Source: Patescibacteria group bacterium (GTDB lineage Bacteria; Patescibacteriota; Patescibacteriia; JAHIZJ01). Taken from it: DNA of 64,000 bases. Every line of letters starts with the position of its first letter. The stretch's first letter is position 1. A program made the translations under genes and the position numbers. The notes under the pieces are model-generated. The model had not been told where the DNA came from and ran no database searches. It saw only the letters and a list, made by a program, of their open reading frames with translations. Positions 1-53,052 of the stretch are shown piece after piece. The stretch spans positions 245,036 to 309,035 of the forward strand of contig JAQTMH010000001.1 in the NCBI GenBank assembly GCA_028714495.1. The letters are read 5' to 3'.

Positions 1-38
1 AACGCCTCATCTAAATAGCTCCTAGCTATTGGGGCGTT

Positions 39-848
39 TTATTGGCTCAGAAGTCTATCAATAATTTGCCGAAATGTGTCTTCCGGAATCACGCCGGGGA
101 TGACGTAGCCGTTGATAACAAAGGTGGGCGTCCCAGTTACGCCAATGGCTAAACCAGCCTCGACGTCTTCTTCAATGTCAGCGGCGTATTTGTCCGATTC
201 AAGGCATTTTTTGAATCGGTCCGTGTCCAGTCCGGACTGCAGGGCGTAGTATTCCAAATCAACCGCTGCTAGTTTAGCTTGATTTTGGAACAGCCGGTCG
301 TGAAATTCCCAAAATTTGTCCTGCTCATTGGCGCAAGCCGCCGCTTCAGCCGCCCTCTCGGCGTCAGGATGAATATCCGTACCTGGATAATCCCGATAGA
401 CAAAATAAATCCGGTCGCCATATTCACTCATCATTTTCCTCACTGTGGGAAAGGCTTCGCCGGAGAACGGGCATTGAAAATCAACAAACTCGACAATCTC
501 CACTTTTGCTTTGGTCGAACCAAAACCCGGATCATCGGCCGTTAGCAGTTTGTTCATATCAACAATCGTGACCTGTTCAGTCGTATCCTGGGCGCGCTGG
601 CCGAGAACGCTTAGGGCATACCAGGAAACACTGACGATAAATAAAACAATTAAAACGCCAAAAATTATCAGGGAGATGCCCCACCAGGTGCGCCACCAAC
701 GGCGTTGAGGTAAGGGTTGAGGCGCCGGTATTTTTGTCTTATTTGTAATTGGCAAGTTAGCCATATCTTTATCATAACCCGAATTCAAAAATAGTAAAAG
801 TTTTCCGAACCAAAAAACCGTCTCTCTTAAACTCGAGACGGTTTTCAA
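39..848 (-). CDS. DsbA-like thiol:disulfide oxidoreductase (thioredoxin fold), membrane-anchored; true start probably the internal Met (MANLPIT..., ~764)
   Basis: Translation contains CPFS (CxxC-type) motif in 'FVDFQCPFSGEAF' and a C-terminal 'GTPTFVINGY' DsbA-like cis-Pro region. An N-terminal hydrophobic helix precedes the domain. A hairpin terminator-like palindrome lies downstream at 1-40. Confidence 0.7.
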   Translation of the reverse strand: MKTVSSLRETVFWFGKLLLFLNSGYDKDMANLPITNKTKIPAPQPLPQRRWWRTWWGISLIIFGVLIVLFIVSVSWYALSVLGQRAQDTTEQVTIVDMNKLLTADDPGFGSTKAKVEIVEFVDFQCPFSGEAFPTVRKMMSEYGDRIYFVYRDYPGTDIHPDAERAAEAAACANEQDKFWEFHDRLFQNQAKLAAVDLEYYALQSGLDTDRFKKCLESDKYAADIEEDVEAGLAIGVTGTPTFVINGYVIPGVIPEDTFRQIIDRLLSQ

Positions 849-1115
849 ATATCCCCTCTCTGGGCCGGCAAAGGCACACGGGGTTATACCAACTGCGGGA
901 CCCGAAACGCCTGAGGAGAGAGCAACAAGCGCTCAAATCGCTGCAATCGGATCCGTAGACACTTTGCCGGCTTAGAGAAAGGACCTTTTCTGAATCAACC
1001 AGTATAATACTAATAAATTCGGAAAAGGTCCCCTGTACCGGAAGCGCAAAGCGCGACTGGTACAGGGGGTTATGGCTTCTCCTCAAAAGCCATCAGACTT
1101 GACGAACCAGCCTCA

Positions 1116-1745
1116 TCAGCACGCGACCCAGGCAACACCTGAATCGCCTTGTTCACGTTTCGTTCTGACCAGAAAGTTCTTGATCGCTTGGGCCTGCTTC
1201 AGCGAAGCTTGGTTAACGGCTACCACCTTCAGGCAATAGCCAAACGACTCGTGGGGTATAATCTGGCTGGTTACTTCGATGTACCAGCCACAGCCCCAGA
1301 TGCGGAAATTCCGCGGATCAGCCAGCGACAGCCTAATGCTGACACAGCTATCACTCAAACTCACGGTTTCGGACGCATCAGCCGTCAGCTCATCCAATGT
1401 CTGAAACGCAACCTGATCAGCTAGAGGATCTTTCGTCGGTACACGGCCCTGGGTCAGAAACTCAGCGGTGGCCTGAAGCGAGTAGCGCTCTCCAAAGAGC
1501 ATCGTTACATCGCCGCCACGTGTGGGCGCGATGTAGGCCCGCCTGCTGTAGCTGGTCGCCGGCAAACCAAGTTGTCTCGCCTGCACATCAAAGAGCTGGT
1601 TTAGCAACTCGGTCGCCTCGCTGGTGTCCATTTCGGTCTGATACACGACCTGGATCTGGGTCGTCTCTGGCTCGCCAGAGCAACCGAAGATCAGCGAAAA
1701 GGCTAGAGCCAACACGACGCCGCCAAACAACCTCATTATCTTCAT
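1116..1745 (-). CDS. hypothetical lipoprotein
   Basis: N-terminus MKIMRLFGGVVLALAFSLIFGC has a signal peptide plus lipobox (IFGC). No recognisable domain. Confidence 0.5.
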   Translation of the reverse strand: MKIMRLFGGVVLALAFSLIFGCSGEPETTQIQVVYQTEMDTSEATELLNQLFDVQARQLGLPATSYSRRAYIAPTRGGDVTMLFGERYSLQATAEFLTQGRVPTKDPLADQVAFQTLDELTADASETVSLSDSCVSIRLSLADPRNFRIWGCGWYIEVTSQIIPHESFGYCLKVVAVNQASLKQAQAIKNFLVRTKREQGDSGVAWVAC

Positions 1746-1919
1746 CCAGAACCTCCTTGTCCACTGAGAAACGTTCCCGAGCTCTCCACATCTTGGAAAG
1801 CCCTAACCTTCATATTCAAAATCGGGTTATGAATGAGCTTTTTTCCCTTCTGAATCTACGAAGCTTTTCTTCCTAGACTCGGAAAGGTGAAGGTGTTTTA
1901 GCTAAAGCTAGGTACACCC

Positions 1920-2951
1920 TCAAGACCTGTTCAATGGAAAGTCAAGAGCTGAGAAGACCTCTCGCCACCGGGCAAGAAACGCCTCCCATTTGTCCAACGG
2001 CACCTGGACCCTTGTTCTCAACCGACCGCTCACACCATCCGGAAGATGGACGCGGAGATCAATCTTGCCCCACCAGTCCCTCGGCAATTCGACATAGACT
2101 TGCTCGCCCATGTGACCGATGCCAATGACGCAGAGCAAGACGTTTCCGTGACGGCGCAGAACCTCATATCTCCAGGTGGGGAGAGAAACCTTGATGCCCG
2201 AATGGGCGGCCGGCCGAAGGTCAGAGAGCACCACCCGACCTGGCAGTTCTATGGCTTCATCAGCCAGCTGATAAGCCGCCAGTTTGGCCACGTAACATGC
2301 GGCTGAGACCTCGTATTTCAACTGATGGATCGTATCGCTGGCCTGGCAACCGCTGGCTACCCAGTCAGCAATGGTCTGGTAGACCCTCTGTTTCTCCCGC
2401 AGATGTCCTTCGGGGTCCATACTGAAATACGGTATTGTGTTGAGGCTTTCAACCAGAAGTCTGCCTACCCGACTCAGCCTAGATATTCCGTTGCTGGATC
2501 TCTCGCTGATGTCGGCATCATCCTCCAGACCCAGATACCAGGCACCGCAAGCCTTGAGAAAACCCAGGAAGCCGTCGTTGTCGGCGTGAAAAAGCACCAC
2601 GCTGACACCAGACTTCCTCCATTCATCACGGGTAATCAGATGGGCACACGAAGGCGCCGCGATTCGGTCAACCAGGCGGATTGCTTCGCCGAATCTCTGA
2701 CGCAATCCTTCGGCATTCTCCTTTTCAACTTGAACCTGGTTCAAATGATGGTCAGCGAAACACGCTAGCCGATGACCAGCCGCGATCAGTTGATCAATCA
2801 ACGCGCACATTTCAGTTGACGGTGCCAAGTCAATGCAGGCGAACCGGCTGCTGGGAGGCAGAGAGGCGACTAACTCTAGGCGATCCTTTTCCGTGATATA
2901 CGGCTGGATCGCGATGCCACGCACGCCGTTCAAATTCACCACCAGAACCAT
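1920..2951 (-). CDS. hypothetical protein (343 aa)
   Basis: Long ORF in the same orientation as its neighbours. Contains 'FADHH' and 'HADNDG' strings but in an order unlike DHH phosphoesterases. Function unknown. Confidence 0.45.
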   Translation of the reverse strand: MVLVVNLNGVRGIAIQPYITEKDRLELVASLPPSSRFACIDLAPSTEMCALIDQLIAAGHRLACFADHHLNQVQVEKENAEGLRQRFGEAIRLVDRIAAPSCAHLITRDEWRKSGVSVVLFHADNDGFLGFLKACGAWYLGLEDDADISERSSNGISRLSRVGRLLVESLNTIPYFSMDPEGHLREKQRVYQTIADWVASGCQASDTIHQLKYEVSAACYVAKLAAYQLADEAIELPGRVVLSDLRPAAHSGIKVSLPTWRYEVLRRHGNVLLCVIGIGHMGEQVYVELPRDWWGKIDLRVHLPDGVSGRLRTRVQVPLDKWEAFLARWREVFSALDFPLNRS

Positions 2952-3108
2952 GCGATCCCTCCGTTTCTTCGGCTGATGCCTCTATGGTTTTTGACAATGA
3001 GCTATCTTCTTCTGAACCCGCGAATCGTTATGATTCCCAGATTCAGGGAAAGGGGCGAACACCAGACGATATTCGCCCAATGAACAGACCTTCGTATGGC
3101 CAGTGTTG

Positions 3109-3576
3109 CTAGTAGTTCGACAGCGTCAAGACGACGCCGTCACCAGCCGGGCCTGATGTGGCCGTCTCGCCATACGCCTCAATCGTGTAGACGCCGGCTA
3201 CAAGCTGGTAGCCGATGTTGCCCTGGCTGTAGCCGAGCGGCCCAATCGTCATCGGCGCCTTGGTGAATGGGTTGTTCGGCAACACACCGCCGGTCCATTG
3301 CGACACGTCATTGAGCTGTTCCAATGTCGGATAGACGTCATCGTTCCGGACCGCAAAGTCCTCGACCACGAGCTGCGTCGAGTGGCAGTTCGCCTTGACA
3401 CTGCCTTCCTTGGCGCGGTTCACCATCGCGATGTAGTCCGGGATGGCGATCGCCGCCAGAATCCCGATGATGAGGACCACAATCATCAGCCCGATCAGAC
3501 TGAAACCATGGGAATGAGAACTCTTCATGTCCAGCTCCTCCTCTTTGAAACCGACTCTTTCTTCCGCCACTCTCAT
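3109..3576 (-). CDS. type IV pilin / pseudopilin (prepilin-type N-terminal methylation domain); likely start at internal Met MKSSHSHG (~3528)
   Basis: Translation has 'GFSLIGLMIVVLIIGILAAIAIP', the class III prepilin leader/cleavage motif G|F(T/S)LIxLMIV. Position +5 is Gly instead of the usual Glu. Confidence 0.7.
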   Translation of the reverse strand: MRVAEERVGFKEEELDMKSSHSHGFSLIGLMIVVLIIGILAAIAIPDYIAMVNRAKEGSVKANCHSTQLVVEDFAVRNDDVYPTLEQLNDVSQWTGGVLPNNPFTKAPMTIGPLGYSQGNIGYQLVAGVYTIEAYGETATSGPAGDGVVLTLSNY

Positions 3577-3771
3577 CTATCAGCCAACAGCCAACTCCGC
3601 AGGCCAATGCCTGACAGATAAATCTGGCTTGTCAATCTTAACGCGTGACCCGATGTTTGATGCAAAGAGCAATTCTTCCTCTGAGCGCTCAATCGTTTAT
3701 TGCGCAATCAAGAACTCGGAGAAAGGGGGTATTGCCAGTCAAACCAGCAAAATACCCCACGACCAGGCGAA

Positions 3772-4050
3772 TCACTGCCCTTGGTTAGGCAATTGAAGGC
3801 GGGAGATCAGGTGGTTCCTGTTGATCAACCAGTAGAAGATCATGGGTATTGTCAGGCAGAGCGACACCCCCGCATAAAATAGGAATGGTGGTTTACCTGA
3901 CAGTAAGTATGACAGCATGCCGAGTGTTGCCACAATGCCAGCGCCGACAACCTCATTCCAGATGGGCTTGGGCCAGCGCCACGACGCGTAGAGCCAGCCA
4001 GCCACCGGAGCTGCCAGCAACGCAATGAGATGGTACAGAGTCATAGACAC
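3772..4050 (-). CDS. small integral membrane protein (92 aa), hypothetical
   Basis: Three hydrophobic segments. Same strand as the neighbouring genes. Confidence 0.35.
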   Translation of the reverse strand: MSMTLYHLIALLAAPVAGWLYASWRWPKPIWNEVVGAGIVATLGMLSYLLSGKPPFLFYAGVSLCLTIPMIFYWLINRNHLISRLQLPNQGQ

Positions 4051-4266
4051 CTCCTGGATCGAGCCTGTTGCGAAAAGAAACTGTCAAAAGAGCTATCCTT
4101 CTCTGAAGTTATTATGGTACCTCTCCATAAAGTCGAGGAATAATAAATTCAGAGAAAGAGGGCAGAACCAGTTAAGCTTGCGCTTTTCCAGTTCTGCCCA
4201 AGGGGCAGTACCGGAACCCTAGAACCATTACGGTTCAGGGGACTGGTACTGCCCTGTGTTGTGAAG

Positions 4267-4899
4267 CTAGGACTCGGCGATGAAGTGGGCGTGGCTGCAG
4301 CGCTGGCATTGGGCCTTGGCGAGTGCCGCGTCTACTGCCGGACGATACCGAATGAGCGACTCGGGGAAAGCCTCGAGTGAGCCCTGGTAGAGCGTCTTGG
4401 CCACGATTCTGGCCAGGCGCTCCGCCTCGTCCTTCACCACCTCGCGCGACTGCACCCGAACCCGCGACCCCGTAGAACTGAGCCTGAGCTCGATCACGAC
4501 GATTCCGCCGGGCACCGAGAAGAGCGCGTGCGGATCATCCTGCTCCCGGCCCACGAAGAATGGCCGAAGCGCCTTGCCGGAGAAACCGCAGATGATCGTA
4601 GCCTGGCCGATCTCGCCGAGACCGCCGCCCTCCTCCGCAATCTGGATGAGCGGCGGCTGTCCGTTGACGCAGGACGGCATCTGGAAGACGCCATCCTGCC
4701 CCTCGACCTGCGGCAGGTCCACGACGACACCGGTGCGAGTCTCGTGAACCTCCACATCCTCCGCCCCCTGGTCCCAGAGCTGCGCGAGAATGGCTTCCCG
4801 ATTGCCCTGGGCGAGTTTCACGATGAGCTTCATCATGGCGATACCCCTTTCTGCTCGAACACCTAAACCCTTGGCAACAATTCCTTGTTGCCAGTTCAC
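4267..4899 (-). CDS. hypothetical protein (probable start at MKLIVKLAQGN...)
   Basis: GC-rich ORF of 210 aa. No recognisable motif. Confidence 0.4.
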   Translation of the reverse strand: MNWQQGIVAKGLGVRAERGIAMMKLIVKLAQGNREAILAQLWDQGAEDVEVHETRTGVVVDLPQVEGQDGVFQMPSCVNGQPPLIQIAEEGGGLGEIGQATIICGFSGKALRPFFVGREQDDPHALFSVPGGIVVIELRLSSTGSRVRVQSREVVKDEAERLARIVAKTLYQGSLEAFPESLIRYRPAVDAALAKAQCQRCSHAHFIAES

Positions 4900-5109
4900 A
4901 CCTGTCTGGGGCTGCTAGCTTCACTAATTGTAAAGAACCAACCCCCACACCAAATTCTTCAGAATAATTATTGAAAAATTTGGTGTGGGGGAACAAACTA
5001 TTCTACCTCAACTCTCGAAAAAAATCAAGGGCTGGAGTAGAACGGGGAAGAAGTGATTGGCTGCTTCCCCGTCAATGTGTCTCACTGTACGAGTAGGTCA
5101 TTTCACCTC

Positions 5110-5406
5110 CTAGGCCACCAGCAACAAAGGGTCGCCGGAAAAGGCCTGGTTGATGAGTGCGCGGATAGCGTGCTCATGGTGAATTCGACAAACATCCAGG
5201 TGAAGTATTTCTGCCACCTGGGGCACAAGATTCTCGATCGGGTATCCCCGATACCAGACCCACCCGTCAAGGTAGGCCTTGAGGACCGTTGCCGCTTCAA
5301 GCTGCGACCTGATGCGCATATCAAGCCCCCCTTCTGTGGAAGAGCCTTCCTCTGAACCTTGGACCATGATTGGTTCAAAGCTCGGAAGAAGTGGGGGCTC
5401 ACACAC
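5110..5406 (-). CDS. small hypothetical protein (~98 aa)
   Basis: ORF fills a 530-bp gap between flanking genes on the same strand. No motif recognised. Confidence 0.3.
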   Translation of the reverse strand: MCEPPLLPSFEPIMVQGSEEGSSTEGGLDMRIRSQLEAATVLKAYLDGWVWYRGYPIENLVPQVAEILHLDVCRIHHEHAIRALINQAFSGDPLLLVA

Positions 5407-5427
5407 AGTGTAAGCCCCCTCAAAAGA

Positions 5428-5913
5428 TCACTGTCGGTACCAGAGCTTGACAGTCAACCCTGGACAGATCATGTTCAGCTTCCGCACAGAGTCCCGGAAG
5501 TTCATGGCCGCCTCCCTTGACGGCCGCGGCTTGAAGCCAATGACCGCGTAGACTTCCTGATCAGTCATCTTTGGACCGGCTATCTTGTTGATATCCGAGC
5601 CCCAGGCGTCGTGAACCCAGACTACCAGACCCATGAACTTGATCTGGAAGGTAGGGTCAACCTCGAGCTTCTTCATGTCCACGCTCGGGTCAGTGCCGAG
5701 CCGAACAATGTGTACGACTTCAAAGAAGTAATCGTACAGCTCATACTTGCATCCTTCGAAGACAAAGGACGCACAAGCCTGTGTCCAGTCATCGACTGGC
5801 ACATTGATGCTGTCCAGCTGTGACGCTGTCAGCTCGATAGTGACGGTTTCCGCTCCTGCGTACGCCTGGCAAAATGCCAAGGTCGCGACCACCAAGATCA
5901 CCAAACTCTTCAT
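5428..5913 (-). CDS. secreted hypothetical protein (161 aa)
   Basis: N-terminal signal peptide MKSLVILVVATLAFCQAYAGA. Confidence 0.5.
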   Translation of the reverse strand: MKSLVILVVATLAFCQAYAGAETVTIELTASQLDSINVPVDDWTQACASFVFEGCKYELYDYFFEVVHIVRLGTDPSVDMKKLEVDPTFQIKFMGLVVWVHDAWGSDINKIAGPKMTDQEVYAVIGFKPRPSREAAMNFRDSVRKLNMICPGLTVKLWYRQ

Positions 5914-6169
5914 TTTAGCCTTCCTCCGTTTGGTACGGGCTGGTCATCGTTGGCCACCAGCAAGCCAGTGTCAAAGAGCATTCCTTCCTCTGAACCCTCA
6001 ATCCGCTATTCCCGATTAATATCAGGAGTCTTGGGATTAAGAGTTCGGAAGAAGTTCCCAGCACCGGAAATCCCGAAGGATAACTAGTGCTGGGAGCCCC
6101 GAACCGGAACCCTGTAACGAAGCGCTTCGCGCCTGGTTCAGGGGACTGGTTCGTGGAAGAAAGAGCAGA

Positions 6170-6556
6170 TCACAGATGATAGGCAACCGCACCCTGCTGT
6201 GGAATGGCCCACCAGCAGTCAACCTCGAATCGGTGACCATCATAGTTCCAGGCAGGCACCCAGACCTTGTATCGCGAGTAAACCTTCCCTGAATCAGTCG
6301 TCAGGTGATGGCACGCCCGGATGATGATCCCCCGGGCTTCAGCATCTCGGCTGAAGGCGCTAGGAAGGATGTAATCATTCTTGTCCTTTGGGGTCGCCGC
6401 GTCGGCATTGAACACCCAGACCGTGTCGCCGACGGCGAATTCAGTCTTGGCGAAGTTGATGTAGCCGGGCTCACTCGGTTGAGCCAGTTGAAGAACATCA
6501 GCCGCCGAGGAAGAAACCACGGCCATCGCGACCAGAAGAACCACTAGCCACTTCAT
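6170..6556 (-). CDS. small secreted protein, paralog family (EPG...VGDxVWV motif)
   Basis: Start MKWLVVLLVAMAVVSSSAA has an RBS GGAGGG 6 nt upstream (reverse complement of 6557-6566). Shares 'EPGY...FAVGDTVWVFN' with the 7414..7827 product. Confidence 0.55.
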   Translation of the reverse strand: MKWLVVLLVAMAVVSSSAADVLQLAQPSEPGYINFAKTEFAVGDTVWVFNADAATPKDKNDYILPSAFSRDAEARGIIIRACHHLTTDSGKVYSRYKVWVPAWNYDGHRFEVDCWWAIPQQGAVAYHL

Positions 6557-6671
6557 GATACCCTCCTGACGCATAGCGTCTGTCTTGAACCAGGCTGATT
6601 GGATTGACTTCAATCCATACCAACCCAGTTACTAACTTGTAAAGAGCTCCGCTTGAACCTGTCTTTAGTGG

Positions 6672-6830
6672 GGAACCCCGAACCAATTGCGCTAAAGCGC
6701 TTCCGGTTCAGGGCAAGCCCCGAACCGGAGTCCCGTCGAATGACAGAACGACTGGTTTGGGGTAAAGACAGGCTCGAGTGAAGCCCTGACCCCATACCGA
6801 AGCTTTAGCGCCTGGTACGGGGTCAGGGGG
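6672..6830 (+). repeat. compound nested-hairpin element (three tandem units), family 1
   Basis: Units of outer stem CCCCGAACC/GGTT(C/T)GGGG or CCCTGACCCCATACCG/CTGGTACGGGGTCAGGG around central palindromes GCGCTAAAGCGC and AAGCTTTAGCGC. Related copies at 976-1070, 4095-4258, 6054-6160 and 22300-22440. Confidence 0.6.
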
Positions 6831-7010
6831 TGATTTCTTGGCAGCTACGAGAGTCGAACTCGTCATCCTTCCTTGGAAGGAGCCCGAACACCCGGACGGG
6901 CTGACCACCGGGCCACTTTACGTCGGGAAGCCGCCTGATTTATTTCGGCAAGGAGATATATCCTCTCCCGTAACCCGAAATCTTGTTTCGGGTGGTGTTA
7001 AAAGGACGTT

Positions 7011-7085
7011 TCTCTTCCGAACCCGCGAACCTAGATGATTTCCAGACTCGGAAAAGTGGAGGAAGGGCAGGACTTCCTCCGAAGA
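7011..7085 (+). repeat. repeat family 2 (TTC(T/C)GAACCCGCGAACC...GGAGGAAGGGCAGGACTTCCTCC)
   Basis: Second copy at 9100..9172. Partial copy at 3007..3050. 3' part forms hairpin GGAGGAA-gggcaggac-TTCCTCC. Confidence 0.7.
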
Positions 7086-7153
7086 TGTTCAAAATGTGCG
7101 TTGGAGCTCTCGCGCCTGCCTTGTTCCGAAGAACAACGCGAGAGGATGCGGGT

Positions 7154-7456
7154 TTAGAACCAGAAGGTGATGCACCACACGAAGCTGGCAAGCATAGCCA
7201 CCAATCCCGTGCTGGTCTGGAGCCTCTGATCAGGGGCTTCGTTCAAAGACCATGTCCAGAGCCGAGTCGCCAGCGCGACACCCCCGGCAGACCCGAGCGT
7301 GCAGAACCCGAGCAGAGCATTCCTGAACCACATCATGATTCCCTCCTCGCAGCACATTGCTGCATCAGTTTCCATAAACCCCTTGGCGGACTCGCTATGA
7401 GCCGCCGCGACAACTACCAATACAACGCAAGGAAGTAGCGAGAGTAGGCTGCCCAC
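7154..7456 (-). CDS. possible small membrane protein (100 aa)
   Basis: Hydrophobic N- and C-terminal segments. Weak call. Confidence 0.25.
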   Translation of the reverse strand: MGSLLSLLPCVVLVVVAAAHSESAKGFMETDAAMCCEEGIMMWFRNALLGFCTLGSAGGVALATRLWTWSLNEAPDQRLQTSTGLVAMLASFVWCITFWF

Positions 7457-7827
7457 CTTTGAGGCAGGTTATACGCCTCATAGAGGTTGCCAAACTCTGC
7501 TTCCTCCTCGAAGTCCTCTCCCGACAGGGAGACAGCAACCCTGTAGAACCAGTAATCACCATACTGGAAGATCGCCACAACCCTTGCCAACGCGTACTCC
7601 TGCATGCAGGAATCGTCCGCGCCAGGGTACAACCCGCCGTAGGCGCATTCAGTTTCACCTACGTTCACCCACACCGAGTCACCGACCTCCAGCGGCTTCG
7701 AGTTGAAGACGCCGTAGGGGTAAAAGCCGGGCTCTACGTTCTGACCAAACGCCAACGGCGCCAGGACAGCAAAGAGTGAGGCAACGGCCAGACAGATCAG
7801 CACCCAACAGTACGTTCGATGCTGCAT
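7414..7827 (-). CDS. small secreted protein, paralog of 6170..6556
   Basis: Start MQHRTYCWVLICLAVASLFAVLA is preceded by AAGGAGGT RBS (reverse complement of 7833-7840). Motif 'EPGFYPYGVF...EVGDSVWVNV' is shared with the 6170 gene. Confidence 0.55.
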   Translation of the reverse strand: MQHRTYCWVLICLAVASLFAVLAPLAFGQNVEPGFYPYGVFNSKPLEVGDSVWVNVGETECAYGGLYPGADDSCMQEYALARVVAIFQYGDYWFYRVAVSLSGEDFEEEAEFGNLYEAYNLPQRWAAYSRYFLALYW

Positions 7828-7979
7828 TTTGGTACCTCCTTGATGGTTCGAGACCTCTAGGAGAATGATATTATCAATGTAATGAGCCTTTCTCCTACCT
7901 GAGCGCTGCAGTACAGAAGTACTGAAACGCTCGGGTAGGACCCGATGCGCACCAGAGGTGGCACGCATCGGGATGAACG

Positions 7980-8819
7980 TTAGAATGAGTAGGAGAATGA
8001 AACTGAACACTCGGCATGCTTTTCACGCGTGTCATAGTACGCGCGAAGAAAGCACTTCGGCGCGTACTCCGCAGTTGCGCCGACAAGCCATCGCGAGCCG
8101 CGCGCATCGCCGCAGTCGTACTGGGCATAGAGACGCGCCCAAGGGCTAACCCTCACGTAGTTCTGCAGGAAGTACGGAGCGCGTCCCTCCTGCTCCGGAT
8201 CAAACCAGCTTGCGCCGATTGCCGGGTTGAAGAACCGCATGGGTTCCCAAGTCGCGATTGCCGCGTACCCGATGTTCCTCTCCCAGCATGCCTTGACGGA
8301 CGCTGGGGCTCCGGCGAGCGAATCGGTCACCGCCACGTACGCCGCCCAGTGCCGGTCGTCTTTGAAACTGACGACCGTAGTCGTGAACGAGCTAACGATG
8401 TGCGTCGCGGACACGCCGAACTGATTTGACGAGAACTTGCAGTTCGCGTCAGGGTTCCGTGTCAGACGAAGCTCCTGAGGACCAGGGAAGACGGACTGGA
8501 TTGGCAGAGCTTGCTGGCCAATGGCAACAGCAGTCCTGCCGAATTCAGTCACGAACGTCTTCATCGCATACGCCTTTGTCAGTCGCACGCTGGTGACGCC
8601 CGTGCCGTCGATTTCCGCACGGAAGAACAGGGCGTGTGCCTTGTCTTCCTGACAGAGACCCGCCCGCAGAATGCCGAGCGTGTAGGCATGATCGTTGCTC
8701 CGGTCCGGCATGGACACGGAGCCGTACACGTAGTTGCTCGCACCGGCGTTCGCAGCCAGTACCAACGCGAAGATGATCGCGAACAGCATGGCGACTTTGA
8801 ACCGACAACCGGAAATCAT
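7980..8819 (-). CDS. secreted beta-rich protein, outer-membrane-protein-like (C-terminal ...FSYSF)
   Basis: Signal peptide MISGCRFKVAMLFAIIFALVLAANAGAS. Alternating hydrophobic pattern. Terminal Phe is typical of beta-barrel OMPs. Confidence 0.5.
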   Translation of the reverse strand: MISGCRFKVAMLFAIIFALVLAANAGASNYVYGSVSMPDRSNDHAYTLGILRAGLCQEDKAHALFFRAEIDGTGVTSVRLTKAYAMKTFVTEFGRTAVAIGQQALPIQSVFPGPQELRLTRNPDANCKFSSNQFGVSATHIVSSFTTTVVSFKDDRHWAAYVAVTDSLAGAPASVKACWERNIGYAAIATWEPMRFFNPAIGASWFDPEQEGRAPYFLQNYVRVSPWARLYAQYDCGDARGSRWLVGATAEYAPKCFLRAYYDTREKHAECSVSFSYSF

Positions 8820-8885
8820 TGATCCCCCCTTGTTTCTGCCGTTTTGGTAGACCGTTAGCGCACTTCAAGGAAGCCGCCTAAATCT

Positions 8886-9031
8886 CTCCACACCGAACTG
8901 GAGGTGAGTTTGTCCATCTTTGAGCCGAAGCTCGATGGACCGGCTGAACTTAGTGAAGGCGTTGAGTTGTTCACCCGACGCGATCACCTCGTCTAGCCAC
9001 TCTCTTCTCCCCTCCATGTCGGTGCGGAGAA
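8886..9031 (+). repeat. 143-bp direct repeat, copy 1
   Basis: Near-identical (one internal mismatch) to 10311..10455. A diverged third copy lies at ~10625..10770, sharing the core TTTGAGCCGAAGCTCG. Confidence 0.85.
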
Positions 9032-9238
9032 ACGGTAGTCGTTCCCCGACTTGATCGGGGAACCTAGAAATTCTACTTAGTGTGTGTAATAAATAACTTC
9101 TCCTCTTCTGAACCCGCGAACCGAATTGATTCCCAGGTTCGGAAGATAGGAGGAAGGGCAGGACTTCCTCCAAGAACGAATGAGCATAGTAATTCTCACA
9201 CCTGCCTGCGAGCTAAGCTCGATTTGTGAGAGGCGAGA

Positions 9239-10069
9239 TCACCGAACGTAGCAGTGGTACTCCTTCCAGAGGAAATCCCTCTCCTTCTGGGTGAGCCCGA
9301 GCTCACGCCCGGCGATATTGTACTCGTTGATGGCCCAAGACAATCGCAGTATGGCCCAGCCATACTGTTCCATATCCTGAAGGGAACGGGCATAGACGAG
9401 CACGTCCCGGCAGTCCTGGACCAGCTTGGCCCTGAACTGTTCCGGACTCAGGCCATAGTCCTGGATGGTCGTCCCACTGGCGTTCACCAGGTGGACGATT
9501 TCGCGACCGACGTCCCAGGGGTCATCGAGCATGATGGTGCCCTCGCCCTGTCCGATGTCATGGCCGCGGCGGGCGGAAATCGGCTGGTCCAAGCACTGGA
9601 TCAATTCGGTCGCGATGGTACGTCCGAGCCGGTTGTGTGCGGAGTGCACTTCGCTTGCGTTGACCCCGACGTCTTCCCAGGTGACATTCCAGTCACCGAG
9701 ATTGCGCATCGCCGATCCGACTTTGCGATACTGATCGAAGCGCTGGTCGAGGACTCCGTAGGAATCCTGCGCCATCTTCACTTCCTGCTCCCAGCTCGGA
9801 GACAGGAAGCCAGTGAAGACCTGCCGCATCTGCTCGGCGTACTGCGTGCGCTGTTCGAAAGCCTGGCGAGCTTCGTTGAGGGACACCTGTGCGGCCTTCA
9901 GGTTCTCGGCCTGCTTGTTCAGCGTGGCCTCCTTGACCGCCAGCTCCTCGCTCCATGAGTTCAGGTTGGCCTTCTGGTCGCCGAGGTGATGGAACCCGAC
10001 CAGCGTGATGACCAGAAGCACCGCCCAGACGATCCCGACTGCTCCAACGATTCCGATCCGCTTCTTCAT
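9239..10069 (-). CDS. membrane-anchored coiled-coil protein, hypothetical
   Basis: Start MKKRIGIVGAVGIVWAVLLVITLVG with AGGAGG RBS. Long Q/E/A/K-rich coiled-coil segment follows. Flanked by 143-bp direct repeats. Confidence 0.5.
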   Translation of the reverse strand: MKKRIGIVGAVGIVWAVLLVITLVGFHHLGDQKANLNSWSEELAVKEATLNKQAENLKAAQVSLNEARQAFEQRTQYAEQMRQVFTGFLSPSWEQEVKMAQDSYGVLDQRFDQYRKVGSAMRNLGDWNVTWEDVGVNASEVHSAHNRLGRTIATELIQCLDQPISARRGHDIGQGEGTIMLDDPWDVGREIVHLVNASGTTIQDYGLSPEQFRAKLVQDCRDVLVYARSLQDMEQYGWAILRLSWAINEYNIAGRELGLTQKERDFLWKEYHCYVR

Positions 10070-10310
10070 GACCTTCGGTCCTCCTTTGACAGCTTGACCT
10101 GCCGTCTGACATACCCCCATGCTTCATATCCGAGACCGATCATCCCGACCTTTCGACTTCTCTCAAGATCAGGACGCTCCCGCAACCCAGCACCACGTAG
10201 GGCGCCGGGCTCTGGGAGTATTTAATTGTCAAAGTTCTGGTAGCGCTCTCATTTGCAGGAATAACCATCCTTCATCCTTCATTCTTCCTTCTGAATTCTT
10301 AATTCTAAAT

Positions 10311-10455
10311 TGGCTTCTCTCCACCGAACTGGAGGTGAGTTTGTCCATCTTTGAGCCGAAGCTCGATGGACCGGCTGAACTTAGTGAAGGCGTTGAGTTG
10401 TTCACCCGACGCGATCACCTCATCTAGCCACTCTCTTCTCCCCTCCATGTCGGTG
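10311..10455 (+). repeat. 143-bp direct repeat, copy 2
   Basis: See copy 1. The two copies flank the 9239..10069 gene. Confidence 0.85.
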
Positions 10456-11252
10456 CGGAGAACAATCCTATTGCGTATCCCGAAATCTTGTTTCGGGTTT
10501 GTTGTAAAGAACGTGGTCTCTCAATAAGCAGAATGCATTATTTCCCTGCCAGCTCGAGGCCGGTGGACTCGGCCCTTTTGCATGGTTTGTGACCGCCTCC
10601 GGTCCTCGAATTGGCAGGGAAACAATTTGTCTAAAAAGCACTGATCTGGAGGCGAGTCCAAACGCCCTTTGAGCCGAAGCTCGGGCGCTCAAACTGAATT
10701 GTGTTGAAGCCATCGAGGCATGGCCCGATGAGATCAACTCCTTCAGCCTCCTCCCTCCTCCATATCAGTGCTATTTAACGTCGTTCATGGTCCGCCTTGG
10801 GCGGACGGCAATTTAAAATGGGTGACAGTTTGCTGCTGTCAAACCCGAGAAGAGAGTTTTCGACAGAAACAAACCACCACCCATTGATTATGAATGCCGG
10901 TTTTCCAACCGCAATTTGAAGCGATTGGCTCTCTCCTCATTTATTTTATGTAATGTGCTCGCGAACTCTCCCCACAAGATTCTTGAGCATAACTGGAGAG
11001 TATAGCGTACCAAAAAAGACCTGTCAAGACCCCATGAGATGATATTGGCTAATGTAAGCCAAAATATTTTATCAATTAATTTATTTATTGGGTTTTTTAA
11101 CATATTACTACGTAGGCGAGGTTGATCAACCTCGCCTGCTTTGGAAGAGCTTATTTACTATGGAATAGTTGCGCCGGGGTGGTTCTACGCGTTTACTTAC
11201 AAAAAAAACTGTGATAAAGTGACCGCGAAAGTGTTGTTTCGCGACTTTCTTT

Positions 11253-11687
11253 ATGCCAAAAGCAAACAAAAATTTCCACGTCGGCCTGAAGGCTTTTCTT
11301 CAAAAAGACTCTTCATTCCTGGCGCTCAAAGATGCTTATAGCGATTACTGGGATGTTCCCGGCGGCCGGATTGAAGCCTCGGAAATCGATCAGCCGGTTA
11401 CCGAATGCCTGCGCCGCGAACTTTTAGAAGAGTTAGGTTTAAGTTTTCGCTATAAAATCAATAATCTTTTCGAGGTTTGCCAATTCCGCGTCGATGCCAA
11501 AAACAAACGTTCGCCCGGCGTTAATCTCTTCTTGGTTTTTTATGTCTGCCAATACTTAGGCGGCGATATTGTTATCAATAATGAATCGACGAAATACGAG
11601 TGGCTGACAAAAGAAAACTATCAACTTTACAATTTCGGTTCACAGCAAAAAGTGATTGAGCAATTTGTCCGGCAACGTCTTTCTTAA
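11253..11687 (+). CDS. NUDIX hydrolase
   Basis: Nudix box 'GGRIEASEIDQPVTECLRRELLEELGL' (GX5EX7REUXEEXGU). Confidence 0.7.
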   Translation: MPKANKNFHVGLKAFLQKDSSFLALKDAYSDYWDVPGGRIEASEIDQPVTECLRRELLEELGLSFRYKINNLFEVCQFRVDAKNKRSPGVNLFLVFYVCQYLGGDIVINNESTKYEWLTKENYQLYNFGSQQKVIEQFVRQRLS

Positions 11688-12206: not shown

Positions 12207-12279
12207 GCCGCGGTGGTGGAACCCTGCACCATGTAAGGTGCAGGGCTCCGAACCTGGCATGGTTCGAGGCTGGGTAAAA
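12207..12279 (+). repeat. tRNA-Leu 5'-end-derived hairpin element A
   Basis: Begins GCCGCGGTGGtGGAAC, which is the first 16-17 nt of the downstream tRNA-Leu. Continues into the hairpin CCCTGCACCatgtaaGGTGCAGGG and a second stem. Ends GGGTAAAA. Confidence 0.6.
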
Positions 12280-12311
12280 TTTAATAACAAATATTCTTTA
12301 GAATAGTTGGT

Positions 12312-12413
12312 GCCGCGGTGGCGGAACTGTCCCGTACCACAATGGGTACGGGACACCCAGAACTCCACGCAGTTCTGGGTGGTATCCGGCACCCAACGTG
12401 GTGCCGGGTAAAA
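12312..12413 (+). repeat. tRNA-Leu 5'-end-derived hairpin element B
   Basis: Begins GCCGCGGTGGCGGAAC, identical to the tRNA-Leu 5' end. Followed by three perfect hairpins (GTCCCGTACC/GGTACGGGAC, ACCCAGAACT/AGTTCTGGGT, CCGGCACC/GGTGCCGG). Ends GGGTAAAA. Confidence 0.6.
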
Positions 12414-12445
12414 TCACAAACTGCAAATTATTCAGCCCAACTGGA

Positions 12446-12532
12446 GCCGCGGTGGCGGAACTGGTATACGCGACGGACTTAAAATCCGTTGGAGGAAACT
12501 CCATGAGAGTTCGATTCTCTCCCGCGGCACCA
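12446..12532 (+). tRNA. tRNA-Leu (anticodon UAA), type II with long variable arm, CCA encoded
   Basis: Cloverleaf checked by hand. Acceptor GCCGCGG pairs CCGCGGC. Anticodon stem ACGGA/TCCGT with loop CTTAAAA. Variable arm GGAGgaaaCTCC. T-loop TTCGATT. 3' end ACCA. Confidence 0.85.
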
Positions 12533-36954: not shown

Positions 36955-38055
36955 CTATTTCATATCAGGCGGTGGCGGCGGGAAAAGCTGGTCGGTATGA
37001 TCCTCTTTTACTTCAGTCTTTTTTAATTCGGGGGGCGGTTCTTTATTCTCGGCAGGAGGCTTAAAGGGGTCAGGCGCCGGATTCTGGCGCGGTCGCCTCA
37101 CTAAGTTATCGATGAGTAGAATTAAGCCAACGGCCAAGATCATTAGGCCGACAACTAATAGCCAATTTGAATCCTCATCTTCATCAGTCTTTGCTGCCGT
37201 GGAATTTTCGGAGTTAGTATCGTCGGTTTTTTCTTCAGAGTTGGTCACCGGTGTTTTTTGGGTTTCCTGTCCGTCCGTTTTATCTGTTTCCTCGCCCTTC
37301 ACCTCGGTAGTTTTTTCACTTACTGCCTCTGGCGCCGGGTTCTGGGGAATAACAAATTCGATGATGGCCGAGGGTTGGCTGGCTTTGCCGTTTGGATCCT
37401 CGGCTAGCGCAAAAACCGTGTGCCGGCCTGGCGTCATTTCATAGTAAGTTTGATAGGAAAAGCTGGCCGCGCCAGATGGATGGTTTTTTACCATGAACTG
37501 GCCGTTTAATATCCCGTCGATATAAATCTTCACCAGCGAATCGTTAATCGCCAATCCGACAAACCATGGCTGGGTGGCTTTTGTCTGTTCATTTACCACC
37601 GGCTGAAACAGGGTCGGCGCCGACATTGGGTATTCCACGAAAAAGTTGAGCGTATTTGAGGATATACTCACTTGGCCCTTGGCGTCTGTAGCAGTTGTAA
37701 GCACCTTATGCCAGCCCGGCCGTAAATTTAAAAACGGCTCATAGCCAAAATTCGCCGTGCCAGAAGGGTCGTTTTTTACCATGAACTGGCCATTAAGCTC
37801 ATCATCAATAAACACCTTTATCAGCGAATCGTTCAAAGCCAACCCGGTGACAATGGGCTTGGTTTGGCTCGTGAAACTTCCGTCAGCCGGCGCGATTAGA
37901 GTTGGCGCGGGAAAAGCCGAGCCTTCGGCCACCGCGGCGGTAACTGAAGCTATCGGCCCGAATAAAACCGCGAAAATAATCAAAAAAACGAAAGCTATCT
38001 TCGTTTCTCGGTTTACCTTTTTCCCTCCTTTGGGCAAAAAGTTTATCTGTACCAT
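36955..38055 (-). CDS. surface protein with two Ig-like repeats, Thr/Glu-rich linker, C-terminal TM anchor and Pro-rich tail
   Basis: Two ~90-aa repeats ('...P.ITGLA.NDSL.K..ID..LNGQFMVKN.PSG...') resemble the Ig-like repeats at the C-terminal end of the giant protein. Confidence 0.55.
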   Translation of the reverse strand: MVQINFLPKGGKKVNRETKIAFVFLIIFAVLFGPIASVTAAVAEGSAFPAPTLIAPADGSFTSQTKPIVTGLALNDSLIKVFIDDELNGQFMVKNDPSGTANFGYEPFLNLRPGWHKVLTTATDAKGQVSISSNTLNFFVEYPMSAPTLFQPVVNEQTKATQPWFVGLAINDSLVKIYIDGILNGQFMVKNHPSGAASFSYQTYYEMTPGRHTVFALAEDPNGKASQPSAIIEFVIPQNPAPEAVSEKTTEVKGEETDKTDGQETQKTPVTNSEEKTDDTNSENSTAAKTDEDEDSNWLLVVGLMILAVGLILLIDNLVRRPRQNPAPDPFKPPAENKEPPPELKKTEVKEDHTDQLFPPPPPDMK

Positions 38056-42666: not shown

Positions 42667-42686
42667 AGGCGGCTTCAGCCGCCTTC
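42667..42686 (-). terminator. intrinsic terminator downstream of gdhA
   Basis: Minus strand reads AAGGCGGC-tgaa-GCCGCCTT followed by TTTTAGTTT. Confidence 0.55.
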
Positions 42687-42725
42687 CTTCATTCTTACTT
42701 CTAAATTCTGAATTCTAAATTGCCC

Positions 42726-52181: not shown

Positions 52182-52770
52182 TTTCCGCAACCCGCCTGAC
52201 AAAGCGTGGTGGAGACACGGGGAGTCACCGCCATAGGCGCCTGCCCGACGGCTGGCGGGGGTCCGCCTTATCTATAATTTTTTATTTAGTTGTGGCGGAG
52301 AACTCTCCTAATCTCTTCCATTTCCCCGTATTCGAAGTGTAAGCATCAAGGCGTGCCAAGTAAAAATTATGGTTTTTTGGTCTGTACTTGGTGGGCCTAG
52401 GCGGCCCCGGACTCGGATCCGGGGGAACCGCTGTTTCCACAATGCGAATGCGGGGTCTCGCCTGCTTACCTATGCTTGGTGGAGATGGGGGGACTCGGAC
52501 CCCCTACCTCAGTCCCGCAACCGGGTGGAACCGTGCCCCGCCGCATGGCGGGGCGACCTCCGCAACCCGCCTGCCAAAGCGTGGTGGAGACAGGGGGAGT
52601 CGAACCCCCGACCTTCGCAATGCGAATGCGACGCTCTACCAACTGAGCTATGTCCCCACCACGCGGCGGGCAGGTGCGAATGCGGCGCTCTACCAACTGA
52701 GCTAACGGCCCACCCTGGTGCGGGACGAATGCTGCGCTCTACCAGATGAGCTACATCCCCATCAAGCATA
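52182..52770 (-). repeat. array of tRNA-Ala-derived fragments (5' halves and CCA-ended 3' pieces) surrounding the intact tRNA-Ala(CGC)
   Basis: On the minus strand: GGGGATGTAGCTCATCTGGTAGAGCGCAGCATTCG...CACCA; GGGCCGTTAGCTCAGTTGGTAGAGCGCCGCATTCGCA...; the intact tRNA; then GGTAGGGGGTCCGAGTCCCCCCATCTCCACCA, ...CCGAGTCCGGGGCCGCCTAGGCCCACCA and GACTCCCCGTGTCTCCACCA. The overlapping six-frame ORFs here are artefacts. Confidence 0.6.
52582..52657 (-). tRNA. tRNA-Ala (anticodon CGC), CCA encoded
   Basis: Minus strand GGGGACAtaGCTCagttggtaGAGCgTCGCAttcgcatTGCGAaggtcGGGGGttcgactCCCCCTGTCTCCacca. G3:U70 present. Confidence 0.85.
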
Positions 52771-52824
52771 GGCGGGCAGGTCTTACCGCTGGACCATAGG
52801 CCCTAATATTAGCTAATTTTCGAT

Positions 52825-52838
52825 GTTCCACATGGAAC
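52825..52838. promoter_or_regulatory. palindrome GTTCCACATGGAAC (copy 2)
   Basis: Lies 56 bp on the 5' side (minus strand) of the tRNA-Ala fragment array. Confidence 0.45.
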
Positions 52839-52980
52839 AAATATTCCGTCCAACAATTAACCAATCAACTTATAGGCCAATTTCTATAAACAATCTGCTG
52901 ACCTTTGAGGACCCGGACTCTGAACCGGGGGAACCACCATCTCAACCATAGAATAGGTTAGTCTTGCCTGCCCTTGCCCG

Positions 52981-53052
52981 TGCCCCCACCATGAATCGAA
53001 CATGGATCCAGGGCTTAGGAGTCCCTTGTTCTATCCGTTGAACTATGGGGGC
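52981..53052 (-). tRNA. tRNA-Arg (anticodon CCU), CCA not encoded
   Basis: Minus strand GCCCCCAtaGTTCaacggataGAACaAGGGActcctaaGCCCTggatCCATGttcgattCATGGTGGGGGCa. A31-G39 mismatch at the base of the anticodon stem. Confidence 0.75.

Follow-up and report, generated by a model that had tools for sequence, protein, structure and literature searches.

In a 64-kb stretch of DNA from a Patescibacteria group bacterium (GCA_028714495.1, contig JAQTMH010000001.1; the whole stretch of 64,000 nucleotides is called the window here), two nearly identical direct repeats bracket a single protein-coding gene, gene A. This arrangement raises the question of what such repeats are: the trace of a recent duplication, the ends of a mobilisable cassette, as a first-pass annotation of the window had proposed, or elements with a role of their own. 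Here we report that the repeats are primarily members of an old and widely conserved family of structured RNA, not the scar of a duplication or the end of a mobile element. The Patescibacteria (candidate phyla radiation) account for a large and mostly uncultured share of bacterial diversity, and almost nothing is known of their gene regulation.

The repeats and their common fold

A repeat search of the window recovered copy 1 (8885–9031) and copy 2 (10316–10462) as a 147-nt direct repeat with 98% identity and an offset of 1431. Their 144-nt core contains three mismatches, one of them internal (G at 8990 on the plus strand, against A in the other copy) and two at the 3′ end of the fold, in line with the first-pass annotation, which had described near-perfect repeats with a single internal G/A difference and differing ends. 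The position then given for copy 1 is correct; that of copy 2 (10311–10455) was shifted by 5–7 nt, and a third, degenerate copy placed at 10625–10770 actually occupies 10634–10775. Over aligned columns, the identity of copy 3 to copies 1 and 2 is 61% (∼65% in the first-pass annotation), and the conserved core is indeed kept: CGAGCTTCGGCTCAAAG is exact in copy 3, as in copies 1 and 2. This 17-mer has three exact occurrences in 64 kb. With up to three mismatches allowed it has four matches in the window, a count that was reached in none of 100 shuffles.

Repeat, pattern and covariance-model searches recovered no further copies within the window. With the filters of the covariance-model search switched off, positions 1–11300 contain a sole additional match, a degenerate relative lying between copies 3 and 2 (Table 1), in which UCGAGG/CCUCGA replaces UGGAGG/CCUCCA; this hairpin is kept with covariation in locus L020. 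The repeats are confined to a single locus in 64 kb, and so are not the common genome-wide dispersed repeat that they might have been. Repeat, open reading frame (ORF) and pattern searches agree with the earlier description in that the two close copies bracket gene A and a structured element of a second type (family-2 element). The view that the repeat is non-coding also holds: copy 3 and the homologues break the ORF (MEGRREWLDEV...) that spans copies 1 and 2, which rules out a coding repeat. The repeat is real and not an artefact of assembly, because the three-copy layout matches that of an independent sister assembly, L028, and because an independent short-read contig, L025, breaks off 28 nt inside copy 2, as a real repeat would cause.

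All three copies fold into the same three-way junction on the minus strand, where all neighbouring genes lie. The fold energies are −77.4, −69.7 and −71.5 kcal/mol for copies 1, 2 and 3 (z = −8.0, −6.4 and −7.1 against dinucleotide shuffles), and the plus strand of each copy gives a less stable fold. Copy 3 differs from copies 1 and 2 at ∼40% of positions, and every helix is retained by compensatory changes: CACCGA/UCGGUG in helix P1 of copies 1 and 2 becomes CACUGA/UCAGUG in copy 3, and UCCAUC/GAUGGA in helix P3 becomes GCGCCC/GGGCGU.

We built a covariance model, R1, from 21 copies and counted matches with E<1e-9. The model finds 39 distinct copies across 22 loci, scoring 45–129 bits. Counted on the model alignment of the 39 copies, which is fitted to the model and consists of mutually related sequences (a caveat on these counts), standard pairs occupy 94.2% of pair cells, as compared with 39–47% when the 3′ partners are slid by 1–3 columns; double-sided (compensatory) changes occur at 24 of the 35 modelled pairs; and covariation scores 0.574, compared with 0.167 for column shuffles, of which 0 of 500 score as high. 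Covariation was also assessed on an earlier set of 26 sequences and by RNAalifold on an independent MAFFT alignment. The functional strand is fixed by the abundance of G.U pairs, which reach 34 of 39 copies at one position near the P2 tip beside an invariant G-C, and by the R1 score, which is 129 bits on the RNA strand and 29 bits on the other.

The RNA is ∼140–165 nt long (∼145 nt in the window copies). The outer part of P1 (P1a) has ∼11 bp that vary freely in sequence (CUCCGCACCGA, GGGGACGAA, CUUUUUAUCAA and others) and covary, and a 2x2 internal loop follows. The inner part (P1b) is the helix UGGAGG/CCUCCA, invariant in 38–39 of the 39 copies, and P1c adds 2–3 bp. Purines predominate in the variable junction. 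The long, irregular P2 arm has a conserved G.U/G-C tandem close to its tip, and P3 is built of 7 bp, an AAA bulge (34 of 39), a further 4 bp and a UUCG loop (32 of 39). An extra hairpin is inserted before P2 or after P3 in some clades. In the 39-copy consensus, the conserved positions are mostly those of P1b, the GG of P2, the AAA bulge and the UUCG loop. The search itself accounts for part of the invariance of UGGAGG/CCUCCA, UUCG and AAA: 21 of the 39 copies came from patterns requiring ATGGAGG, CTTCGG, CAAA and CCTCCAG. The other 18 came from the model or from synteny alone; P1b is perfect in 17 of them, and the helix is kept in all 18. We consider it highly probable that the repeats are members of a functional structured-RNA family.

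Table 1. Positions of the RNA copies, genes and non-coding elements in the window
Feature	Position	Strand	Remarks
Three-way-junction RNA, copy 1	8886–9029	−	between gene A and gene B; 3′ end 66 nt before the gene B start codon (8819); 129.3 bits, E=3.6e-33
Three-way-junction RNA, copy 2	10317–10460	−	last of the tandem array upstream of gene A; 128.4 bits; 99.3% identical to the L028 orthologue
Three-way-junction RNA, copy 3	10634–10775	−	older paralogue, fold shared through compensatory changes; 108.3 bits; orthologues in L028 and L020
Hairpin between copies 3 and 2	10541–10622	−	degenerate relative with a P1-like stem only; inverted repeat; 20.8 bits, E=9.5e-5 (filters off)
Gene A	9239–10069	−	276 aa; N-terminal transmembrane segment, then coiled coil; from the ORF list
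Gene B	7980–8819	−	279 aa; signal peptide (N-terminal hydrophobic segment); cistron directly downstream of copy 1
Sigma-70-type promoter	10999–11027	−	TTGACA-17-TATACT, 11 of 12 consensus positions; points into the array
Leader-1	10815–10990	−	conserved RNA with intrinsic terminator (stem 10882–10820, U-run 10819–10815); 9-locus alignment
Small GC-rich hairpin	10790–10806	−	∼15 nt 5′ of copy 3; read from the sequence
5′ untranslated region (UTR) segment, copy 2 to gene A	10170–10316	−	purine-rich CAAUUUAGAAUU..GAAGGA, then UUGACAAUU, then GGAGCGUCCUGA
Family-2 element	9103–9171	−	conserved structured sequence 3′ of genes; further window copies at 7012–7080 and 3007–3075

Relatives in other genomes and the history of the cassette

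Homologues were collected by pattern scans of GTDB representative genomes and JGI metagenomes. The scans returned clear homologues, often two of them adjacent, together with chance matches; L004, L007, L009, L013, L014, L017, L021, L023, L026 and L027 belong to the latter and were dropped after the covariance-model search. The copies stand singly or in tandem arrays of 2–4. As a test independent of the patterns, we retrieved loci from Patescibacteria metagenome-assembled genomes (MAGs) through homologues (49–91% identity) of the Nudix gene at 11253–11687, which diverges from the array. All seven loci retrieved in this way contain one to three copies of the RNA, in a gap of more than 1 kb beside the Nudix gene and on the strand opposite to it. 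In a second type of locus the copies come after a glycosyltransferase/DUF4012 cluster. Three more distant loci were reached through DUF4012 homologues, with relatives named Patescibacteria and Candidatus Kerfeldbacteria: in L037 and L039 small genes come after copies of the RNA, and L038 has neither the small downstream genes nor the RNA.

Two of the RNA-bearing loci, L002 and L003, come from third-party-annotation MAGs titled 'uncultured Gammaproteobacteria'. These titles conflict with synteny and protein names of Patescibacteria MAGs, and we treated them as probable mislabels. The label of L003 is probably wrong, given a Nudix-SpoU-tRNA synteny in common with Patescibacteria MAGs; L002 is suspected only through the RNA family that it has in common with L008.

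Searches for known families returned nothing that matches the RNA. Among the 4227 models of Rfam 15, none matches the three copies at gathering thresholds or at E<=10, none matches nine related loci at E<=1, and none matches anywhere in the window at E<=0.5. Literature searches did not find a published description of this RNA. Similarity searches with blastn of phage and plasmid collections gave no match to it, and the IMG/VR matches to the 17-mer and to the general pattern are due to chance, as they fail the covariance model; a phage or plasmid origin was rejected. A tRNA-like element was ruled out as well: ARAGORN finds only the tRNA-Leu at 12446–12532, and no Rfam tRNA or 5S model matches the copies. 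No model of a self-cleaving ribozyme (hammerhead, twister, pistol, hatchet and others) matches them, and their junctions are without a catalytic core, which for the hammerhead is CUGANGA...GAAA...UH; the same scans did recover a genuine hammerhead III at L020 111–165. The template and variable repeats of a diversity-generating retroelement were excluded, since both copies are intergenic and non-coding, their three differences are not adenine-patterned, and no reverse transcriptase domain is found among the 10 island proteins scanned. A PADLOC scan of nine island proteins for defence systems gave no match. Nor are the copies TIGR arrays, which are short repeat-spacer arrays (PMC12045711). There are solid grounds for regarding the RNA as a previously unclassified structured bacterial leader and intercistronic family with an unusual modular use.

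Comparison of the window with the sister genome L028 (GCA_028717285.1), in which the Nudix gene is 91% identical, bears on the high identity of copies 1 and 2. The two genomes are collinear at 93–99% identity, and the divergence between them is a mosaic, with 99.1%, 95.9% and 92.8% in adjacent blocks. Copy 3, like copy 2, is 99.3% identical to its L028 orthologue. Within L028, copies 1 and 2 are only 91% identical and differ at 13 sites and by a 26-nt insertion. Copy 1 of the window differs from copy 1 of L028 at 10 sites; at nine of these ten it has the copy-2 state, and the insertion is absent. Its 3′ end, on the other hand, is specific to copy 1 and is the same as in copy 1 of L028 (TG vs GA). 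Because copy 1 is in this way a mosaic of copy-2 states with a 3′ end of the copy-1 type, the 98% identity of copies 1 and 2 is best explained by a recent gene conversion of copy 1 by copy 2 in the lineage of the window. The alternative, in which some 10 changes and the insertion all fell on the L028 branch, is less parsimonious.

The gene that the repeats enclose has a history of its own. In L028, 810 bp of unrelated sequence with the gene of a 185-aa signal-peptide protein take the place of segment 9121–10168 of the window, which comprises gene A and the proximal UTRs; the flanks of the swapped segment are 96–99% identical between the two genomes. The upstream breakpoint of the replacement lies at the 3′ end of the 5′-UTR element, 148 nt from the repeat, and the downstream one inside the family-2 element, 89 nt from the repeat. 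Gene A is a cassette exchanged by recombination in conserved non-coding flanks, and the repeats are not the crossover points. The idea of a recently duplicated or mobilisable cassette survives in part: the gene is exchangeable and sequence has recently been exchanged between the copies, but the repeats are not a duplication scar or a mobile end. A role of the repeats as a recombination substrate for inversion of the enclosed gene does not stand, as direct repeats cannot invert it. Both breakpoints are off the repeats, and the sequences give no evidence that the gene is excised or amplified. A "cassette flanked by direct repeats" can arise without a mobile element, through conversion between RNA paralogues and recombination in conserved non-coding flanks.

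An exchanged gene between copies 2 and 1, concerted evolution of the copies and a cassette-like island of small orphan genes split by structured repeats could also be accommodated by an element acting at the level of DNA: recombination sites or homology arms of mobile cassettes, similar to integron attC sites, or selfish repeats resembling miniature inverted-repeat transposable elements (MITEs), with the RNA fold as a by-product. The positions of the breakpoints do not fit this explanation. The outer ends of the element covary rather than being conserved and show no RYYYAAC/GTTRRRY box, no integrase or transposase is found among the island proteins, and no target-site duplications are present. 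The copies are few and remain syntenic across genomes in which the Nudix protein is only 49% identical, and no match comes from phages or plasmids. The internal arms covary and use G.U pairs, which argues for selection on one RNA strand. We regard a DNA-level element as very improbable.

ERIC, REP/BIME, the Neisseria Correia elements and pneumococcal BOX/RUP are transcribed intergenic repeats; like the RNA described here, they are ∼100–150 bp long with inverted ends, lie between operon genes and fold as RNA, and they can affect mRNA stability or processing. Unlike it, they are dispersed in tens to hundreds, with conserved termini and MITE target duplications. The present RNA has three copies per 64 kb, all in one locus, is syntenic across distant genomes, and has covarying termini and conserved internal arms; on contigs of 71–348 kb we found at most two pattern matches, and no duplication flanks the element. 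With attC sites it has in common imperfect inverted repeats of up to ∼140 bp, structure kept over sequence, the separation of small orphan genes, and an enclosed gene that differs between close relatives. It differs from them in having neither R''/R' core sites nor an integrase, in its conserved and covarying branched interior, and in breakpoints that do not lie at the element. No integrase domain was found in the 10 island proteins or among the called genes of 10 syntenic loci.

Placement of the copies and their possible role

The array heads an island of ∼10 kb with ∼10 genes, all on the minus strand, whose GC content (54–64%) is above that of most of the window. The island proteins are mostly orphans with an N-terminal signal peptide or transmembrane segment; one is type IV pilin-like, and the last gene encodes a DsbA-like protein. 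In other genomes (positions 1–10800 of the window were compared with L028, L031, L032 and L035), the frame from the DsbA-like gene to the Nudix gene encloses an island of ∼3 to 10 kb with varying gene content. Gene A has only two homologues among 5.8 billion clustered proteins, both from Patescibacteria; a function could not be drawn from it, as it gave only weak, sub-threshold Pfam/NCBIfam coiled-coil matches and has no PDB relative. Nor was one found for gene B, whose orthologue in L028 also has a copy of the RNA 66 nt upstream.

Every copy with a downstream gene in view lies on the strand of that gene, which covers all loci but L002, cut at its end. For at least nine copies, 24–31 nt separate the RNA from the start codon, and this interval contains an A-rich linker and a Shine-Dalgarno sequence. 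The downstream genes encode diverse orphan exported or membrane proteins and belong to no single family. Co-orientation, an upstream promoter and the short gaps in these nine or more cases place the RNA on the predicted transcript and upstream of the ribosome-binding site (RBS), as in cis-acting stabilisers or insulators of 5′ UTRs and intercistronic spacers.

From these features we infer one transcription unit, action in cis, and a role of the RNA as a stabiliser or insulator. The copies would be co-transcribed within the long leader and the intercistronic spacers of the island of exported, membrane and pilin-like genes. Each copy would form a self-contained, nuclease-resistant fold immediately beyond the 5′ boundary of the next cistron's ribosome footprint. 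Within a long, processed mRNA, such a fold before an open A-rich RBS would stabilise the cistron and insulate it. The GGAGG:CCUCC helix may keep Shine-Dalgarno-like and anti-Shine-Dalgarno-like sequences mutually paired, or it may be the recognition site of a bound factor. Judged on sequence and placement, the RNA probably acts in cis on the downstream genes; stabilisation and insulation as the specific mechanism is a more tentative proposal, which we favour because it fits the 24–31-nt spacing, an RBS that is A-rich and open, the reuse of the module ahead of different genes, and a ribozyme in the equivalent spacer of a related island. The complete account, with conserved RNA paralogues, a stabilising or insulating role in cis and the history of the window given above, is the best overall explanation, and we rate its chances of being correct as about even.

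Stabilisers and insulators at 5′ ends are known, such as the ompA 5′ stem-loops, the Bacillus aprE and SP82 leaders and the synthetic RiboJ. The RNA is like them in having a very stable fold at the edge of the ribosome footprint, followed by an A-rich RBS 24–31 nt on, and in the hammerhead that occupies the equivalent spacer. Unlike the RNA, the known stabilisers are simple hairpins without family-wide conservation; here a conserved multi-helix domain with an invariant helix is found, and its stabilising effect is a prediction.

Several points weigh against a stabiliser or insulator. The gap to the start codon is not uniform: it is ∼60–66 nt for copy 1 of the window, L028 and L037, and 138–255 nt elsewhere, with other conserved structures in between, so that no single mechanism acting close to the RBS can account for all copies. 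The first copy is separated from the promoter by a conserved intrinsic terminator, and expression of the array therefore needs read-through or regulation. We infer the co-transcription, the 5′ ends and the processing of the array alike from sequence features. The three-way junction, the G.U/G-C tandem, the AAA bulge and the invariant 6-bp helix amount to more than a plain stabiliser would need and suggest recognition of the RNA by a bound protein, a ligand or the ribosome. Finally, tandem arrays of 2–4 copies also fit a dosage-dependent trans-acting RNA.

The elaborate fold leads to the possibility of a regulatory aptamer or operator, in which the copies bind a small molecule or an RNA-binding protein and control translation initiation or read-through, with the tandem arrangement sharpening the response. 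A compact three-way junction, a bulge able to make a tertiary contact, an invariant helix and the G.U/G-C tandem would suit such a function, as would the tandem layout in a 5′ UTR that also holds a conserved terminator, and the frequent end of the RNA 24–31 nt before a start codon. Very few unpaired nucleotides outside the helices are conserved, though, and the downstream genes are diverse orphans with no single family or pathway in common. After the copies there is no evident conserved terminator, sequestering helix, expression platform or alternative pairing; the distance to the RBS exceeds 130 nt for many copies, and no Rfam riboswitch matches. The comparison with tandem leader aptamers and riboswitches, such as the glycine riboswitch, has the same two sides. 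Those are also structured three-way-junction RNAs of ∼100–150 nt in 5′ UTRs, with adjacent copies and covarying helices, whereas this RNA shows no evident set of conserved unpaired residues resembling a ligand pocket, lacks a consistent regulated family and a recognisable expression platform, and also occurs between cistrons. We consider an aptamer or operator unlikely.

The array of copies could instead supply small RNAs acting in trans, cut from the leader, for example by RNase III or P or next to ribozymes, and serving as a decoy, a scaffold or a ribosome-interacting RNA, with a helix that mimics the duplex of Shine-Dalgarno and anti-Shine-Dalgarno sequences. Arrays do hold 1 to 4 copies with spacer hairpins between them, and the stretch over which copies 1 and 2 are alike coincides exactly with the folded unit. 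In the 3′ strand, 14 of the 39 copies read CUCACCUCC, and this sequence presumably shares UCACCUCC with the canonical 3′ end of 16S rRNA, which we take as a lead only. A trans-acting product is difficult to reconcile with the absence of terminators directly after the copies, and with copies that are co-oriented with the downstream start codon, positioned against it, and also found singly between cistrons. This explanation appears improbable to us.

A third alternative is processive antitermination, in which the RNA would modify the polymerase so that it passes the terminator-like hairpins of the 10-kb island. Known RNAs of this kind include put of phage HK022 and EAR of the Bacillus eps operon, which are, as the copies here probably are, cis-acting folded RNAs near a promoter or inside long operons for surface structures and may recur per transcription unit. 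In the window the copies are promoter-proximal and intra-operonic, and head a same-strand cluster of ∼10 genes; the genes of this cluster are separated by terminator-like elements (family-2 and other hairpins) and code for surface and exported proteins, as do the polysaccharide clusters that adjoin the DUF4012 loci. The copies nevertheless have no similarity to put or EAR in sequence or fold and no Rfam match, and the best-conserved terminator is upstream of the first copy, not downstream. Antitermination would also leave the tight 24–31-nt spacing to the start codons unexplained, and we hold it to be decidedly improbable.

In summary of these comparisons, the RNA resembles tandem aptamers in form, 5′ stabilisers in placement, intergenic repeats in size and attC cassettes in layout, and it lacks the defining features of each testable family that is defined by sequence or mechanism. 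A bolder proposal, which we consider quite unlikely, is that of a new modular RNA class specific to Patescibacteria, in which GGAGG:CCUCC mimics the duplex of Shine-Dalgarno and anti-Shine-Dalgarno sequences and is recognised by the ribosome or a factor dedicated to it. Combined with the terminator-bearing leader, the family-2 element and occasional hammerheads, this RNA would make up a hitherto undescribed scaffold for the expression and exchange of hypervariable surface-protein cassettes, the modules being expression adaptors and homology arms at once.

Whatever its mechanism, the RNA marks the head and the internal spacers of hypervariable islands for pilin-like and exported proteins, likely the host-contact surface of episymbionts. 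It is a sequence tag for locating such islands in metagenomes, and, if it controls or stabilises transcripts, a handle on the expression of surface proteins. A locus with a terminator leader, family-2 elements and a hammerhead is also a compact test bed for RNA-based control in reduced genomes.

Other non-coding elements around the copies and in the window

A promoter like that of the window is present on the RNA strand in all 10 Nudix-syntenic loci, with scores of 10–11 out of 12. Downstream of it lies leader-1, which is 97% identical to L020 and whose terminator appears as covarying stems followed by U-runs across nine loci (the window, L003, L005, L029 and L031–L035). A conserved GAGGAGAGAG in the 5′ part of the leader is able to pair with the terminator loop CUCUCUUCUC, and the two covary in L032. 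The leader RNA is ∼190–260 nt long across loci, has no Rfam match, and is followed by the first copy of the three-way junction 30–100 nt past its terminator. It resembles a distinct small RNA or attenuator, as yet unclassified, located upstream of the array. Six loci without a Nudix link (L016, L018, L022, L008, L002 and L006) contain a long hairpin 80–120 nt upstream of the first copy, with the conserved base GAAAGAGAGAGC(A/G)GC ... GGUGCUCUCUC(N)CAGAGGACCUG. Of these, L016, L018, L022 and L006 are of the DUF4012/glycosyltransferase type, and L008 and L002 have other upstream genes. This long hairpin may relate to the GAGAGAG/CUCUCU pairing of leader-1.

A small GC-rich hairpin stands 5′ of every copy, and arrays have additional hairpins in the spacers from one copy to the next. 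In the window, hairpins analogous to the one before copy 3 precede copy 2 (10479–10497) and copy 1 (9041–9063), and the arrangement is the same in L003 and L005.

The 5′-UTR module between copy 2 and gene A is ∼100% identical to L028 up to an abrupt break at ∼10169. L003, L005 and L020 have related sequence after the last copy of the array (UUGACAAUU ... CUCC..GGAGCGUCCUGAYC..GRUCGGGA). A TTGACA found downstream of several copies was considered as a promoter −35 box and rejected, as there is no −10 box at consistent spacing; the TTGACA of this module is probably part of the RNA and not a promoter. The purine-rich sequence CAAUUUAGAAUU(A/C)AGAAUU..AAGAAUGAAGGA, located right after copy 2 at 10266–10312 (−), recurs at 42676–42722 (−), where it comes directly after the stop codon of a glutamate-dehydrogenase-like gene and before a terminator hairpin. 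Sequence related to this element also follows copies of the three-way junction in L003 and L011.

The family-2 element lies 34–330 nt past stop codons and consists of a variable hairpin followed by UUCCGAACC..GGUUCGCGGGUUCAGAAGAG. Its copy in L028 (∼4070–4150) is diverged and compensated, no Rfam model matches it, and it could be a terminator-like or processing element. The hammerhead of the related island is a type III ribozyme with a perfect core, present at L020 111–165 (−), which equals L035 8030–8084 (−), and scores 42 bits against an Rfam cut-off of 48.5. It sits between the genes of a 107-aa and a 282-aa protein in the homologous island of GCA_016294925.1. The Rfam scan of the window found no hammerhead or other ribozyme.

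Other repeats in the window are associated with tRNA genes. The first ∼18 bases of the tRNA-Leu(taa) gene (12446–12532), along with ∼40 nt upstream, are duplicated 134 nt upstream with 70% identity (12269–12329 and 12403–12463), which could be the remnant of a duplication of tRNA and promoter or an old integration scar. A cluster of repeats at 52184–52949 surrounds two tRNA genes on the minus strand (52585–52657 and 52981–53052). It includes three tandem copies of ∼50 nt with tRNA-like sequence (52621–52773) and two further repeat pairs (52184/52559 and 52396/52902), and looks like an array of tRNA genes or pseudogenes. A 106-nt direct repeat with 74% identity is located at 37453–37558 and 37741–37846, its copies 288 nt apart.

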